From a virus (lineage: Duplodnaviria > Heunggongvirae > Uroviricota > Caudoviricetes), in the IMG/VR virus record IMGVR_UViG_2671180430_000004: 7,337 nucleotides of DNA; one strand, written 5' to 3'. The notes beneath the pieces were generated by a model. That model was not told where the DNA came from. It was given only the letters and a program-made list of their open reading frames with translations, and did no database searches. The translations under genes were made by a program, and so were the position numbers. Of this stretch, positions 955 to 6,584 are shown one piece after another. The number at the start of each line of letters is the position of its first letter. Positions within the stretch are counted from its first letter, which is position 1.

Positions 955-1110
955 TTACTTCCTGGATTCGTAGTCTACGAAGACAGCGACCTCCGTCTGG
1001 CCGGTTCGGATTCGTACCTCACAGAGGTCTTTCCTCGTTACCAGTGCCGTCACTATGACGGTTAAACAGATGACGATCAGGGCGATTAACATCGCCTTTT
1101 GCTGCTTCAT
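955..1110 (-). CDS. hokD: Hok/Gef family type I toxin, 51 aa, closest in my memory to HokD/RelF
   Basis: From the ATG at 1110-1108 the product is MKQQKAMLIALIVICLTVIVTALVTRKDLCEVRIRTGQTEVAVFVDYESRK, matching recalled HokD/RelF except for the last residues. AAGGAG lies 9 nt upstream. Stop TAA at 957-955. The track ORF 955..1167 is an in-frame TTG extension into the leader. Confidence 0.85.
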   Translation of the reverse strand: MKQQKAMLIALIVICLTVIVTALVTRKDLCEVRIRTGQTEVAVFVDYESRK

Positions 1111-1286
1111 AGCCTGCTTCTCCTTGCCTTTCGGCATGTAAGAGGCTAACCTACATGTGCAAAGCATGAAATTGGCCTCAGATTAATGTTAAGCGTCTTG
1201 CCGGACGCGTAATGTTAACTGGGGCTTTTCTCTATCTGCCTTTTGGTGTTCATGCCTGAAGCAGATAGCCTCAAGCACCCGCAGTC

Positions 1287-1337: not shown

Positions 1338-2024
1338 TCACTCCTTCTCTTCTTTACCGTAGTGGAGTTGACCAATTTTGATAAGAGGGCGTCCCTGAGA
1401 TTTGCGGTGTAGATTGGTATCGCGCAGAGAATACACACAGCCACAATATTCCTGCTGATAGAATTTTTCGCGCTTGCTGATTTCAATCATACGGGACGAG
1501 CCGCCCTGCTTGCGCCAGTTATAATCCCAGTACACCATGCCCGGATAATGCGCGACGGCTCGCCGCCCACAGTCGTTAACCTGCTGCATATTTTTCCAGC
1601 GTGAAATGCCCAGTGAACTGCTGATCACACTGAAACCATTTTCAGCGGCGTACAGCGCTGTCCGCTCAAAACGCATGTCAAAACACATGGTGCAACGGAT
1701 CCCTCGTTCGGGCTCCCATTCCATTCCTTTGGCTCGTTCAAACCAGTTGTCTGTGTCGTAATCAGCATCAATAAACGGCACGCCGTGTTGTTCAGCAAAG
1801 CGAATATTCTCATCCTTACGAATTAAATACTCTTTCTGAGGATGAATGTTCGGGTTGTAGAAAAAGATGGTGTAGTCGATTCCCGAGGCCTGAAGCGCCT
1901 CCATCACCTCACCGGAACATGGAGCACAGCAAGAGTGCAGTAGTAGTTTGTTTGCCCCGTTTGGGAGCTCCAATTTGGGCCGTTTGAAATCAGCAACTGT
2001 CATAAATATGTTTATTGGGGTCAT
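1338..2024 (-). CDS. queH: QueH-like protein (DUF208, epoxyqueuosine reductase family)
   Basis: 228-aa ORF with N-terminal [19 protein letters not shown], a central CTMC and a C-terminal YCGC, which I recall as the conserved cysteine pattern of QueH/DUF208. ATG at 2024 (alternative ATG at 2003); neither has a clear Shine-Dalgarno. Stop TGA at 1340-1338. Confidence 0.6.
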
Positions 2025-2882: not shown

Positions 2883-3096
2883 AACATCTCATGGTGGCGC
2901 ATAGCAAACTGGCCCGAAGAATATCACGCACCAAGTCGATCTCATAACCCGTTATGACAATAAATCTTTGTAGCTGAACTCACTTGGTGATTTGTCAATC
3001 ATTCCTGGCCTCCAGTTCGTCCTGAATCTCTTTATCGAGTTCACCGTATTTGTTAGTCCTCATCACTCACGACTTGACTTCCAGAAATAACCTTGA

Positions 3097-3437
3097 TTAT
3101 TCGGGGCTATATTTTGTCACCCTGCGTATCCGCGCTTTCGCATTACGCTCAATCTGGATTAGCTTTTCTATATTTTTTCGCCTTTCCCGCTCCTCCTGGC
3201 GCAAGAGCCTTACATCATCTGCCAGTCTGGTTTCTCTTTTCGCCACAGAGAGCATCCAGTCAAATGGCTCCACAACTGCACCGCAAATTTTACAGCGGAC
3301 CTGACGCTCTTTTTCGTCAACCCGGACAGAAGCGTGATGGCAATATGGTCTTTCCGATGGCTCATAAAGAAAATTAACCTGATTACGAGGGTTATCCTCT
3401 TTTACCGGAAATAAAACAATATTGCTTAACTCATCTT
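3097..3437. repeat. direct repeat copy B, about 341 bp
   Basis: Homologous to 2172..2512; this copy carries the intact gene. Confidence 0.85.
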
Positions 3438-3453
3438 CTGGTTTTATTTCCAT
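3097..3453 (-). CDS. small Cys/His zinc-ribbon-like protein, 118 aa
   Basis: ATG at 3453-3451 preceded by AAGGAGAGGAG; the track start is an upstream GTG at 3510. Stop TAA at 3099-3097. Motif C-H-H...C-K-I-C-G. Differences from the paralogous copy are about 13 synonymous to 4 nonsynonymous in this frame, supporting minus-strand coding. Confidence 0.7.
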   Translation of the reverse strand: MEIKPEDELSNIVLFPVKEDNPRNQVNFLYEPSERPYCHHASVRVDEKERQVRCKICGAVVEPFDWMLSVAKRETRLADDVRLLRQEERERRKNIEKLIQIERNAKARIRRVTKYSPE

Positions 3454-3510
3454 GCTCCTCTCCTTTGATGCGAATGCCAGCGGTAATTGAAGCCTGATAG
3501 CTAATTTCAC

Positions 3511-3933
3511 TCACAGTACCGCCTCCTGAAAATCACCCTGATAGAAAGCCGGTACACGCTGCATAACTTCACTCTTCCGGCACTCGCGACAGATTATGTT
3601 CTGATGTCTGTCGTAGCGGCGTATTTCTCCGTCCGGTAATGACCAGATAAGGTCCGGATCAACCACAGATGGTTTCTTCAGCTTTGCCCTCGAGAGTTTT
3701 TTGCGGGCGTTTTGCCAGTCCTTACGAGCCTGTTCAGACGGGAATAACCCGTAGCCAGAGTTGTATACATCCCCACTGGCAACCAGCTCTCTGGCGAGAA
3801 CGCTTATTAAATATCTTGTCGCCCCGGTTTTAGCTTCCAGTTGTCGTAACGTCTCGCGCCCACTCTGGCGTACGAGTTCAACAACCTGCCCCTTAATTTT
3901 TTCCCGCTCTTCCTGTGTAAATACTTTTGCCAT
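3511..3933 (-). CDS. Ren-like protein (tentative), 140 aa
   Basis: ATG at 3933-3931 (MAKVFTQ...); the track start is a TTG at 3948. Stop TGA at 3513-3511. The C-terminal ICRECRKSEVMQRV resembles the C-terminus of lambda Ren as I recall it (FKECRQSAAMKRV), and the gene sits after the P-analog as ren does after P. Identity is tentative. Confidence 0.55.
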   Translation of the reverse strand: MAKVFTQEEREKIKGQVVELVRQSGRETLRQLEAKTGATRYLISVLARELVASGDVYNSGYGLFPSEQARKDWQNARKKLSRAKLKKPSVVDPDLIWSLPDGEIRRYDRHQNIICRECRKSEVMQRVPAFYQGDFQEAVL

Positions 3934-3948
3934 AAGCGCCCCCGGCAA

Positions 3949-4674
3949 TCACTTTTCCGACACAATACGACCGGAGGAATCGACAATCTGTCGAACAATA
4001 TCCCGGTGCTTGTTCAGCTCCCGCAACGCGGCGCAGACACGCTCCCACTTCTGGACATGACTTTTCGCCCGACGCAGTTCGCGGTTTGCCATATGCAGCG
4101 ATGGTAAAACCAGGTCATCCGCTTGCGTTTCGGTGAACGATGGCAACGACTGCACAATGTCCGCCACAGTTTCTGTTTTAATTTCTTCCTGTGTTGCAGC
4201 TTCCTGTACCGGTAACGCAACACCTGCTGGCTGAGGAAAGACTTTACCATCCGTTTCCGCTATGGATGCGGCTTTCGGCTCTGCCGGTAAATCAGCGCCC
4301 GGTATGCAGTACCGAAATTTACCGCCCTGATTCACGCGAATCAGACGCCCTTTGCTGATTGCCATGGCCAGCGATGAATTCGCCCGGCGGGAGGTAATCC
4401 CGAACATCAGTGCCAGCTCATCCGCCGTTTGTGGGCCATGTTGTTCAATCGCCTCAGTCAGCATTTGCGCTGTCACTTTCGGTACCGGTGACACTGGTTC
4501 ACTTTCACCAGCCTGAATCAGCCACCACATCGAACCCTTGTTATCCGCTTCACCACGGCGCTTCAGTTTCCACAGTTCGTTGACCGCATCTTCACGGCTG
4601 ATTCCAAGGCGGGACGCCACCACATGTGAAGAGGCTCTTTTCAGTGCTTTCAGTGCGTCAAATACAGTTTCCAT
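3949..4674 (-). CDS. hypothetical protein with two tandem winged-helix-like domains, 241 aa
   Basis: ATG at 4674-4672 preceded by GGAGG with a 7-nt spacer; the track start is a TTG at 4692. Stop TGA at 3951-3949. Two HTH-like segments ([19 protein letters not shown] and [24 protein letters not shown]) separated from a basic C-terminal region. Confidence 0.7.
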
Positions 4675-4695
4675 TAAAACATCCTCCAACAAAAA

Positions 4696-5442
4696 TTACT
4701 TCACAACTCCCGGAAAGCTGACATTTGAACGCCAGCTATCCCAGTTAAACGTCACCCACCGACAACCGTTCATGGTCATGCGGTCCATAATCCTCTCACC
4801 AAGAAGCGTGCTCATTGCGGCATGATTCAGGTTTGTTAACATCCCGACACTGCACAGTGATGCTGTCCGGCGATCAATTATCTGGTGCAATACCACCTGC
4901 TCGTTTTTCGTCTCCCGCTGAATGCCTATTTCATCCAGGACCAGCAAATCAACCCCGCAAAGCTCCTGTAAAAATTTTTCACCGGATTTGCCGTTGTCGT
5001 AGCTGTCATGCAACACGCTCATGACATCAGACTCGGTGACGATAATCACGCTGCGCCCCTTCGCCATCAGCCGGTTACCCATCGCCGCTGCAAGGTGATT
5101 TTTCCCGGTGCCGGTTTTACCGCTGAACACAAAATTCGTGCACCCGGTCATCAGTTCGTCAGCTATGGATTTGGCCTGGCTCAGCGCGTATTTTTGCCCG
5201 TCGTTCTGCACCTGATAATTCGCAAACGAGCATTTGCTGTGCAGAGGCTGGATGCCCGAACGATTCAGGATTTTTTCCACCCGCAACTGGCGATTCTGGC
5301 GGTTAATCTCCTCGCTGCGTTTTCGTCCTTCAGCAAGTTGCCATTCCCGCCACTCCTCCACCGTCCGGTACGGTGGAACCGCCCCCTGTGGTGCAAGTCT
5401 GTGAATACGTTCAAGAACCCCGGCTGCCGCAATGTTTTTCAT
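4696..5442 (-). CDS. DnaC-like AAA+ helicase loader (phage P analog, Rac YdaV-like)
   Basis: 248 aa. Walker A FSGKTGTGKNHLAAA with the DnaC-type GKN, Walker B LLVLDEIG. ATG at 5442-5440 lies 6 nt after the stop of the upstream initiator gene. Stop TAA at 4698-4696. Confidence 0.85.
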   Translation of the reverse strand: MKNIAAAGVLERIHRLAPQGAVPPYRTVEEWREWQLAEGRKRSEEINRQNRQLRVEKILNRSGIQPLHSKCSFANYQVQNDGQKYALSQAKSIADELMTGCTNFVFSGKTGTGKNHLAAAMGNRLMAKGRSVIIVTESDVMSVLHDSYDNGKSGEKFLQELCGVDLLVLDEIGIQRETKNEQVVLHQIIDRRTASLCSVGMLTNLNHAAMSTLLGERIMDRMTMNGCRWVTFNWDSWRSNVSFPGVVK

Positions 5443-5448
5443 GCCACA

Positions 5449-6513
5449 TCACCCCCTGAATCCCGGCGGAATTTCGGTATCCGGTTCAGAAATATGATTC
5501 ACACAACGCTGGTTGTTCGTGCCGCTTACCGGGAGCAACCAGGGGTTTTCAAAATTCCGGTCCGGCCCAAAAAACGTCGTCGCTCGCTGAACAAATTCCG
5601 TTCCCGCTTTCCCGGTCGCCGCCAGGTATCTCGCGTAACGCCTCACACCATCCAGCATGGTCTCTGGTGGCACCCCCTCGCGCAATCTGGCCTTCCAGGC
5701 ACTGAATGCGGATTTCTTCGGGTTTGCCCCGGCACGCAACGGGTATTCCCGCCAGACCTGTTCGAACACATCCGGATAATCCACTCGTCCCACAGGCTGC
5801 CCGGTGTTTTCCGGGGCTACCCGATCGGCTTCCCGCTGAATGGCGGAATCGGCTTCAGGCTGCTGCAGTTGGAGTGATTGCTCCGGCCTTGCGGTCATCA
5901 CCTGCTGCACAGCGCCCGAATCGGCTTTCAGCGCATACGCTGAATCGGCTTCCGGTGTCGAGCCTGCTGGCTGACCAGGATTGACGGTCTGAACATCCCC
6001 TGCCTGGTTCGTGGCGTTTTTTACGCCATGGACCATAGTGTTTTGATCTTCTTTATCTGTATCTTTATCTGTATCTGTCGTGACTCGTCGTGACATGTGC
6101 GTGACATTTCGTGACGCGCCGTGACAATCGCCATTTTGTTCCCGCTTTCTTTCCCTCTCTCGCTGCGCCCTCTTGCGCTCTGCAGGAGATTTTGCGGTTT
6201 GCGAAATATTGCCGTTGTCCTCTTTAAGCACCTGGCGTTTTTCCCATCCAGTGATTAAATCACCATCAAGTACCCGCCCCTGCATCGTCTGCAAAATTGA
6301 ATCAATTACCTCTTCTGTCACGTCGAGCGCACTTGCCAAATCTTCTGTCGTGACATCAATGTGACCTCGCGTGACATTTCGTGACGCGCTCACCAGGAGG
6401 TGGATATACACTGCCATCACTGTTGCAATTGGCTGCCCTGACACCCTGGCAATTGTTCGCCACTTAGGGTCATTTGGCATGTCATGCCATAATCTGAGCC
6501 AGGCGTTAGCCAT
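5449..6513 (-). CDS. phage replication initiation protein (O-like replisome organiser)
   Basis: ATG at 6513-6511; the track start is a GTG at 6519. The N-terminal domain (WLRLWHDMPNDPKWRTIARVSGQ...) resembles phage replisome-organiser/DnaD-like N-domains, followed by a charged low-complexity linker and a conserved C-terminal domain. It lies directly upstream of the DnaC-like gene and contains iteron arrays. Confidence 0.8.
   Translation of the reverse strand: MANAWLRLWHDMPNDPKWRTIARVSGQPIATVMAVYIHLLVSASRNVTRGHIDVTTEDLASALDVTEEVIDSILQTMQGRVLDGDLITGWEKRQVLKEDNGNISQTAKSPAERKRAQRERERKREQNGDCHGASRNVTHMSRRVTTDTDKDTDKEDQNTMVHGVKNATNQAGDVQTVNPGQPAGSTPEADSAYALKADSGAVQQVMTARPEQSLQLQQPEADSAIQREADRVAPENTGQPVGRVDYPDVFEQVWREYPLRAGANPKKSAFSAWKARLREGVPPETMLDGVRRYARYLAATGKAGTEFVQRATTFFGPDRNFENPWLLPVSGTNNQRCVNHISEPDTEIPPGFRG
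6035..6125. repeat. putative origin core: AT-rich tract plus five phased CGTGAC iterons
   Basis: GTGAC at 6080, 6090, 6101, 6111 and 6121 (spacing 10, 11, 10, 10 bp), immediately 3' of the AT-rich tract ATCTTCTTTATCTGTATCTTTATCTGTATCTGT (about 6046-6078). Lies in the linker-coding part of the initiator gene. Confidence 0.55.
6317..6389. repeat. second iteron array: four phased GTGAC plus one inverted copy
   Basis: GTGAC at 6350, 6361, 6371 and 6381 (spacing 11, 10, 10 bp) and GTCACG at 6317-6322. The 21-bp block GCGTGACATTTCGTGACGCGC at 6369-6389 is identical to 6099-6119. Confidence 0.55.
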
Positions 6514-6584
6514 ACTCACCTCTTCTGATACCGAATCTTTTTACTCACGAGTTGCCGGGAGCGATTCGATATGGCTATTGTCAG

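Follow-up and report, generated by a model that had tools for sequence, protein, structure and literature searches.

The replication origin of phage lambda, ori-lambda, lies in the middle of gene O, where a set of iterons, the platform on which the O-some forms, is accompanied by an AT-rich tract (PMC7466680). In phage SPP1, the origin oriL is located within gene 38, with AB boxes positioned beside a DNA unwinding element (DUE), and suffices for theta replication dependent on G38P, a protein without an AAA+ domain that also binds a second discrete region, oriR (PMC5737612). Here, we describe a 7,337-nucleotide stretch of DNA from a tailed phage (IMG/VR virus record IMGVR_UViG_2671180430_000004) – referred to throughout as the window – in which two arrays of short GTGAC repeats lie inside a gene predicted to encode a replication initiator (5449-6513, minus strand). 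One array is in the segment encoding a linker between two domains of the protein (the linker array) and directly adjoins an AT-rich tract, and the other is in the segment encoding the N-terminal domain (the N-domain array). From the sequence comparisons presented here, we consider it probable (about 75%) that a lambdoid-type prophage has its replication origin here, inside the gene for its own initiator, with the linker array and AT-rich tract as the core and the N-domain array as a second cluster of sites.

An origin in this location would resemble that of lambda in several respects. It would lie mid-gene, at the boundary between a DNA-binding N-terminal domain and a partner-recruiting C-terminal domain (PMC7466680), with the iteron array preceding the AT-rich tract in the direction of transcription. 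In both, origin specificity in mosaic phages follows the N-terminal half, and iteron number is variable – as in the variants of Shiga toxin (Stx) phages with six iterons – with extra units lengthening the protein (PMC7466680). However, the window units are direct repeats of 10-11 bp with an asymmetric core of 5-6 bp (GTCACG in the sense of the gene), whereas lambda iterons are inverted repeats of about 19 bp, and the window has a second array in N-domain coding sequence, a (GATAMA)n tract, and a DnaC-like partner rather than P. The window protein has no match to Phage_rep_O (PF04492) at E <= 0.01, and this profile is absent even from the weak matches of 42 members of the family; together with the short, direct, asymmetric iterons, this indicates that the protein does not belong to the lambda O family. 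The replication modules Eru1-3 of Stx phages were also considered, and contain different genes.

With SPP1, the locus would share an origin embedded in the gene for its own replisome organizer, repeats adjoining a DUE, and a second bound region (PMC5737612). The differences are that oriR is distant, outside gene 38, and proposed to function in fork stalling, whereas the second array in the window is 270 bp away in the same gene; that the hosts of the window family are Proteobacteria; and that the helicase-loading partners are not the same. Any homology is at best remote: residues 5-123 of the window protein align with positions 1-119 of the 121 in PF09681 ('N-terminal phage replisome organiser') at a sub-threshold score of 15.7 bits (cutoff 23.3; E = 0.015), and this match is seen in only two of 42 family members scanned. 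Membership in the G38P-type organizer family is only weakly indicated.

The linker array (6079-6125) consists of five CGTGAC units with plus-strand GTGAC starts at 6080, 6090, 6101, 6111, and 6121 (spacings of 10, 11, 10, and 10 bp), which from their sequence are the presumed core initiator-binding sites. The N-domain array (6349-6385) has four (C/T)GTGAC units starting at 6350, 6361, 6371, and 6381 (spacings of 11, 10, and 10 bp); the additional 5′ C is thus present in all five linker units and in three of the four N-domain units. A single inverted core (GTCAC on the plus strand) is located at 6317-6321, 33 bp downstream of the N-domain array in the sense of the gene, such that transcription would traverse the N-domain array first, the linker array second, and the AT-rich tract last. 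The two arrays share a 21-bp block, GCGTGACATTTCGTGACGCGC, composed of two iteron units and a spacer and duplicated identically at 6099-6119 (in the linker array) and 6369-6389 (in the N-domain array), as well as an 11-bp block, TCTGTCGTGAC, common to 6074-6084 and 6344-6354, and the gene encodes the peptide ASRNVT twice, at amino acids 43-48 and 133-138. A prior sequence-only reading had described the paired, regularly spaced arrays, the shared 21-bp block, the inverted copy beside the second array, and the repeated peptide, and it proved accurate in every detail.

These arrays are not expected by chance. GTGAC occurs 20 times in the window compared to an expected 11.45 ± 3.04, a number reached in none of 200 shuffles. 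In 2000 dinucleotide-preserving shuffles of the initiator gene, the best chain that any pentamer formed at 10-11-bp spacing was mostly two units long, was three in only 14, and was never longer, whereas the unshuffled gene has one chain of five and one of four. No further GTGAC cluster exists in the window, nor in the sequence flanking related loci, and the window contains no DnaA boxes. An RNA-level explanation of the arrays was rejected, because the mRNA-sense strand of 6035-6389 folds no better than its shuffles (z = -0.69) and the array region has no Rfam match, the sole match in the window being to sok at 1105-1280. An internal promoter or terminator was similarly rejected, as a single promoter-like site (6101-6128), with 1.5 expected, is not an enrichment.

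The AT-rich tract (6035-6078) is the presumed DUE, judged from its composition. The AT-rich neighbor of the linker array noted in the earlier reading is real, with 6035-6074 being the least stable 40-mer of the gene (ΔG of -43.2 relative to a gene mean of -57.7, standard deviation 3.8). In gene sense, 6052-6075 reads as four (GATAMA) hexamers – GATACA, GATAAA, GATACA, and GATAAA – and doubles as a 12-bp tandem repeat. The N-domain family has 677 matches in the protein collection, and a one-genome-per-species scan provided 57 loci (designated here with L numbers) from Gamma-, Beta-, and Alphaproteobacteria, Acidobacteria, and a Gemmataceae metagenome-assembled genome (MAG), spanning locus GC contents of 33-69%. 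In nearly every family member the sequence (C/T)AGATAAAGATA... directly follows the last linker unit. The AT content of the tract averages 0.68 across the family, compared to 0.44 for the rest of the gene, and is 0.62 relative to 0.40 in those loci with at least 57% GC. Asp codons are GAT and GAC in a ratio of 113:5 within the tract and 400:439 outside it (p = 3e-27), and the corresponding ratios of AAA to other Lys codons are 92:26 and 373:317. Judged from this codon usage, the tract is under selection at the nucleotide level, as are the iteron codons. In many homologues (L012, L015, L019, L021, and others) paired C5-C7 tracts directly follow (GATAMA)n, as in ACCCCCCTAACCCCCCGC, and encode PPLxPP; such paired C tracts are also present in the Rac prophage gene ydaU, and are absent from the window gene.

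A spacing of 10-11 bp has the consequence that units fall in all three reading frames, as GCG-TCA-CGA, GTC-ACG, and GGT-CAC, and the conservation of their codons can be compared with that elsewhere in the gene. We used a codon alignment of 20 diverse homologues with the GTCAC core, having about 45-70% identity and derived from loci of 34-69% GC. Outside of the arrays, residues that are at least 90% conserved are encoded by three to six codons, with the top codon having a 28-60% share at fourfold and sixfold sites. In the N-domain array, the codon is GCG for A43 in 18/20, TCA for S44 in 19/20, AAT for N46 in 17/18, GTC for V47 in 20/20, ACG for T48 in 20/20, GGT for G50 in 20/20, CAC for H51 in 19/19, GTC for V54 in 20/20, and ACG for T55 in 19/20; in the linker array, S134 is TCA and V137 is GTC, each in 19/19. 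When pooled, the top codon is used in 223 of 234 instances (95%) at iteron codons, compared to 490 of 958 (51%) at other conserved residues (nominal Fisher p = 1.6e-42), and the Val codon within the inverted unit is GTG in all 17 homologues with Val at that position. Within this alignment, synonymous sites are frozen only in the iteron codons.

The layout is broadly conserved across the family. In 24 of the 57 loci GTCAC is present at the same gene positions as in the window, with four units around nt 129-160 and three to five around nt 380-430, and with the inverted unit between these at nt 193; the inverted unit is at nt 193 or 181 in most loci of this GTCAC class. The N-domain array occupies the same gene position in about 40 of the 57 loci, and the linker array and AT-rich tract are nearly universal, with the array always abutting the tract. 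The lambda-like arrangement proposed in the earlier reading, in which iterons and then an AT-rich tract mark the boundary between the initiator's domains, is thus kept family-wide, and a comparison of iteron numbers across homologous prophages shows four units in the N-domain array and three to five in the linker array at these positions, and six N-domain units in L004 and L007. The downstream partner gene varies by lineage, and encodes a DnaC/IstB-like protein, a lambda P-like protein, a DnaB helicase, DUF6475, or a product of no assigned type. For several Pseudomonas phage records, including 5399, phita81A, 5371, and Marin (hits H37-H42), the homologous region is annotated as two hypothetical proteins, which suggests that gene callers break the open reading frame (ORF) around the repeat and linker region.

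The iteron word itself is not constant. Six loci (L025, L028, L034, L038, L045, and L046) have a GTAACG core in both arrays, fifteen have CGAACG(C), and L058 has GTGACG. An unbiased search for the best chain of pentamers spaced at 9-12 bp, run separately on gene nt 90-270 and nt 300-600, placed the same or an overlapping word at the top for both arrays in most genes. The core classes are interspersed in a rough neighbor-joining tree constructed from 78 columns outside of the arrays, with parsimony giving approximately 11 state changes (losses counted), a figure that is indicative only; L030 (GTCAC) is distinguished in both arrays from its close relatives L025 and L028 (GTAAC). The classes all share xxNACGC, recurring every 10 bp, in which a single 'specificity' base varies. 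As read from these sequences, the iteron core changes between lineages in both arrays together. One Enterobacterales sub-clade (L030:2501-3490; L025 and L028) also has units at 5-bp spacing (GTCACGTCACGTCACG), together with an extra unit in the segment encoding helix 3 of the N-domain, where the GTCAC member L030 has His (ERHV) and the GTAAC member L025 has Asn (ERNV).

Mosaic prophages show which part of the initiator the repeats accompany. The gene or most of it is present in 1647 of 5426 complete Escherichia coli genomes and in seven deposited E. coli phages; most copies are in integrated prophages, and one homologue is on a 237-kb record annotated as a plasmid. The N- and C-terminal halves of the initiator recombine independently, and the exchange junction of the C-terminal domain adjoins the tract. 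In L004, the same N-domain is joined to a DnaT-like C-terminal domain, followed by a lambda P-like gene, and both arrays are kept (with five and six units); the two extra units of its N-domain array add seven residues, TCHGVSL, to a loop in the protein, and L007 similarly has a six-unit N-domain array and seven additional loop residues. In L005, the same C-terminal domain is behind an unrelated YdaU/DUF1376-like N-domain, and there are no GTGAC sequences. That GTGAC arrays are kept with the same N-domain in L004, and are lacking with another in L005, shows that the iterons go with the N-domain. L005 (1999-3108) has its own 11-bp repeat, GAAGGGGCTTC, with three copies in N-domain coding sequence (gene nt 183-216) and three in the linker (nt 438-473), after which comes a (GAACAG)n tract in place of (GATAMA)n. 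The two-cluster plan thus recurs with a different N-domain and a different repeat word.

The ydaU gene of the Rac prophage in E. coli K-12 (L063:1620-2477) has linker repeats of the TGTTCAA/TGTTGAA type at about nt 355-470, followed by AATAAAGATACAGATAAAGAT and two C7 tracts, and two further copies of GCTGATGTT(C/G)AA in the N-domain region. These repeats may correspond to the historically mapped Rac origin oriJ, for which no sequence-level description was found in the literature searched.

Variation among close relatives was examined in an IMG/VR scan from which 80 loci (L064-L143) were kept, all close E. coli relatives, comprising 58 distinct alleles and revealing no new iteron class. All five cores of the linker array are intact in each of the 57 distinct alleles that are readable there, with polymorphisms located in the spacers. 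Core substitutions were found in the N-domain array of two alleles and in the inverted unit of one. The copy number of the hexamer in the tract ranges from 3 to 11, resulting in an in-frame (TDKD)n length polymorphism in the protein.

The window initiator is 354 residues long when translated from the ATG at 6513; the ORF extends over 5449-6519 with an in-frame GTG at 6519, and RefSeq homologues begin with MANAW, at the ATG. The full-length protein belongs to PHROG 3729, 'replication initiation protein' (E = 3e-250), while the N-terminal 160 and C-terminal 157 residues each match separate PHROGs. PHROG families of replisome organizers also match, with E-values of 2e-5 to 4e-4, and many RefSeq homologues are labeled 'phage replisome organizer', although a Pfam search of the full protein returned no family at E <= 0.01. 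The N-terminal domain (about residues 1-125; 6139-6513, minus strand) is the presumed iteron-binding domain, based on a predicted fold that is winged-helix-like. In an AlphaFold (AF2) model of residues 1-155, with a mean predicted local distance difference test (pLDDT) score of 72 and 87-94 in the core, helices are predicted at 3-14, 16-25, 29-45, 56-63, and 67-77, followed by a beta hairpin at 78-89 and then a disordered basic linker. The N-domain array encodes residues 43-55 (ASRNVTRGHIDVT), which in this model correspond to the end of helix 29-45 and the loop preceding the helix-turn-helix (HTH).

The C-terminal domain (about residues 200-354; 5449-5916, minus strand) is DnaD-like or DnaT-like (PHROGs 18526 and 1701), and by sequence similarity is presumed to recruit the loader or helicase. 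The protein ends with ...PDTEIPPGFRG (5449-5480), and the IPPGFRG motif is shared with Rac YdaU and several distant homologues having other N-terminal and middle parts; this region has a weak match to the C-terminus of the primosomal protein DnaT (E = 0.0016). The motif may be for docking of a DnaC-like loader. Immediately downstream is a DnaC-like helicase loader gene (4696-5442, minus strand), with matches to NCBIfam PRK12377 (E = 2e-150), the DnaC equivalog (E = 2e-88), and Pfam IstB_IS21, and upstream of the initiator gene are a YdaT/CII-like gene and a Cro-like HTH gene. The order cro-like, ydaT/cII-like, initiator, loader is that of the early right operon of lambdoid and Rac-type prophages. 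The earlier assignment of the gene as a replication initiator is supported by PHROG 3729, the sub-threshold PF09681 match, the DnaC-like loader downstream, and the early gene order.

The comparisons show that the repeats are real, that selection acts on them at the nucleotide level, that they co-evolve as a pair and go with the N-domain, and that a selected AT-rich tract is coupled to the linker array. From these observations we infer that the N-domain binds the repeats, that the tract melts, and that the region acts as an origin, as well as what the second array does. In the best-supported mechanism, modeled by analogy with the origins of lambda and SPP1, the winged-helix N-domain would recognize the iteron, GTCACG in gene sense, every 10-11 bp, a repetition that places the copies on one side of the helix. 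An oligomer of N-domains assembled on the five in-phase units at 6079-6125 would distort the DNA, the adjoining (GATAMA)n tract at 6035-6078 would open, and the C-terminal domain would bring in the DnaC-like loader with the host DnaB. The N-domain array (6349-6385, together with the inverted unit at 6317-6321), 270 bp away, would be a second cluster of sites for the same protein.

Direct repeats beside a DUE are also bound by the winged-helix initiators of plasmids (RepA, RepE, and TrfA), and the origins of Staphylococcus aureus pathogenicity islands (SaPIs) have two sets of short 6-8-bp iterons, used by an island-specific initiator, with specificity switching between islands. Nonetheless, plasmid iterons are 17-22 bp in length and are outside of the rep coding sequence, whereas those in the window are 10-11 bp and coding, and the window protein has no Pfam, NCBIfam, or PDB match to the plasmid Rep families (RepA/RepE/TrfA). 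Similarly, the SaPI sets flank an AT-rich region downstream of rep, whereas in the window the AT-rich tract is outside of the pair and both arrays are coding. The locus differs from the described cases in its very short 10-11-bp unit, in having a conserved second array where the DNA-binding domain is encoded, in its (GATAMA)n tract, and in the clear, family-wide switching of iteron words in both arrays at once. Plasmid Rep proteins bind to repeated motifs in single-stranded DUE DNA (PMC4081077, PMC10602881), and the hexamer repeat may therefore be more than just AT-rich; by analogy, single-stranded binding by the initiator is a possible role for it.

Several observations weigh against an origin of this design. 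The N-domain has no significant match to any solved structure or Pfam family: Foldseek comparison to the PDB returned nothing below E = 0.35, with the weak matches all being to generic winged-helix regulators, and a PDB sequence search gave a single chance-level match, to ribosomal eS25 (E = 0.17). The predicted 'recognition' helix (helix 3) of the N-domain is acidic in the model, not basic. The N-domain array is absent from L040, L032, L035, L048, L049, and L059 – L040 having seven linker units – and in L056 it is displaced by approximately 60 nt. The distance between the arrays does not stay in helical phase across relatives, with last-unit distances of 249, 258, 267, 270, and 339 bp, and a rigid looped geometry is thus not favored; conservation of helical phase between the arrays is not supported, the steps within this 249-339-bp range being dictated by codons. 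The homologues are not independent samples and the p-values given above are therefore inflated, and the real argument is the within-gene control, namely the saturated synonymous sites elsewhere in the same genes. Finally, no paper describing the origin of this family was found in the literature searched, which included few subscription journals.

The most serious alternative, although we regard it as unlikely, is that the arrays are sites for the initiator or another regulator with a purely regulatory function, such as an autorepression roadblock or titration, and that the true origin is elsewhere in the prophage. Second iteron clusters in the P1 and F plasmids are control elements, the N-domain array is located approximately 130 nt into the gene, where protein bound to it could obstruct transcription of the operon for initiator and loader, and only 7.3 kb of the prophage is visible. 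However, an operator would not be expected to be invariably fused to a selected AT-rich tract, even in hosts of 60-69% GC, as the linker array is, this being the signature of an unwinding element; moreover, the position at a domain boundary within the initiator gene is that of ori-lambda and SPP1 oriL (PMC7466680, PMC5737612), and neither the window nor the related flanks offer another GTGAC cluster. It is improbable that the arrays are instead sites for a different DNA-binding protein – a host factor, or one of a centromere, packaging, or partition type – even though a parC-type geometry is a reasonable likeness, ParR acting on two clusters of five 11-bp repeats at parC of plasmid R1, and the one plasmid-annotated homologue could be taken to favor it. 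The motif co-segregates with the N-domain through domain swaps and changes with the N-domain family, while neighboring regulators and the helicase or loader partners vary freely; a host factor cannot explain four cores within related hosts, and most copies are in integrated prophages.

Two further explanations would deny the arrays any role as DNA sites. Neutral slippage products, or recombination hot spots marking module junctions, might be suspected from the variation in hexamer copies among E. coli alleles and in the number of array units (4 to 6), and from the C-terminal exchange junction beside the tract, but position, orientation, and core are conserved from Gamma-, Beta-, and Alphaproteobacteria to Acidobacteria and the Gemmataceae MAG, and the polymorphisms among the 58 E. 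coli alleles hit the spacers of the linker array and not its cores, making this explanation highly improbable. Least credible of all is that the repeats are a by-product of constraint on the protein, with a duplicated ASRNVT and a low-complexity linker and no DNA function. The protein alignment does show conserved SRNVT and CHxxSRNVT, and the 21-bp block is in frame, but the units at 10-11-bp spacing occupy three reading frames, the frozen synonymous sites are confined to iteron codons and include TCA and GGT, which are rare in GC-rich hosts, and the AT-rich tract uses GAT and AAA against host bias. The encoded peptide also changes along with the motif between lineages, which argues that it is the DNA word and not the peptide that is kept. 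The sequence-only reading had named repeats explained solely by peptide coding as one outcome that would refute it, and this is contradicted by the three-frame units, the frozen synonymous sites, and the co-varying motif.

If the region is the origin, as we favor, then the N-domain array could act in either of two ways that we consider about equally likely: cooperation with the core by looping or wrapping, or negative control, whether by titration, by handcuffing, or by a roadblock to transcription of the operon for initiator and loader. In plasmids, a second set of iterons close to the rep gene, as with the incC/incA-type arrays of P1/F-type replicons, can exert control by titration or handcuffing (PMC5397158). 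The array is not indispensable, since it has been lost in some lineages, but neither is it decorative, given its frozen synonymous sites and its recurrence in L005. The earlier suggestion that it is an auxiliary or autoregulatory site is compatible with an array that is widely conserved, yet lost or displaced where the linker array stays.

A more elaborate scheme, which is speculative and has perhaps a slim chance of being correct, is that the origin is truly bipartite, with a second array that doubles as coding sequence for a surface loop in the very domain by which the initiator binds DNA, and that this loop, or other residues encoded by the iterons, aids recognition such that site and reader switch together. 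With the array written into the loop, a change of iteron word alters the loop, which has H51 with GTCAC, N with GTAAC (L038), and R or T with CGAACG. In the alignment, most of the differences between core classes are found in the loop encoded by the array and in the basic stretch that follows the wing; a search for specificity residues outside of the iteron-encoded segments was dropped, because class differences are too confounded by phylogeny. If true, a self-encoded loop would provide an intrinsic means of arriving at new origin specificities and types of replication incompatibility, and it would explain why the two-array plan recurs in the unrelated N-domain family of L005.

Other features of the window lie outside of the proposed origin. 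Within the initiator gene, GAATCGGCTT is present three times (5846-5855, 5918-5927, and 5942-5951), compared to 0.54 copies expected and with three reached in 4 of 200 shuffles; the copies are in the coding sequence for an EADS/KADS-rich segment preceding the C-terminal domain, and L005 has four. Downstream of the loader gene, 3511-4692 (minus strand) contains DUF977 and DUF1627 genes (Pfam), the usual cargo of this prophage replication region. A hok/sok-type toxin-antitoxin module is located at 955-1280 (minus strand), with an Rfam sok match (RF01794; 117 bits at 1105-1280) and a Hok-like 70-residue ORF at 955-1167. A 300-bp direct repeat with 92% identity (2163-2462 and 3088-3387) appears to be a partial duplication of a 137-residue ORF at 3097-3510 (minus strand). 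A 228-residue ORF at 1338-2024 (minus strand) may be similar to QueH/DUF208.

The family to which this initiator belongs spans phages and prophages of Pseudomonas, Aeromonas, Ralstonia, Bordetella, Acidobacteria, and others, and the gene is mostly annotated as encoding a hypothetical protein. The comparative data amount to an origin prediction at base-pair resolution together with a set of natural specificity variants, in the form of four iteron cores with matched N-domains, such that the recognition rules of a non-AAA+ initiator become directly testable. The conserved second array, together with its recurrence where the N-domain is unrelated, suggests that phage origins of this class may generally be built on two clusters, a plan unlike that of lambda and SPP1. 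Reading the region as an origin explains both the frozen synonymous sites and the frequent in-frame length polymorphism in these genes, and the arrays offer markers with which prophage replication modules could be typed, among them modules from pathogenic E. coli and Shigella.

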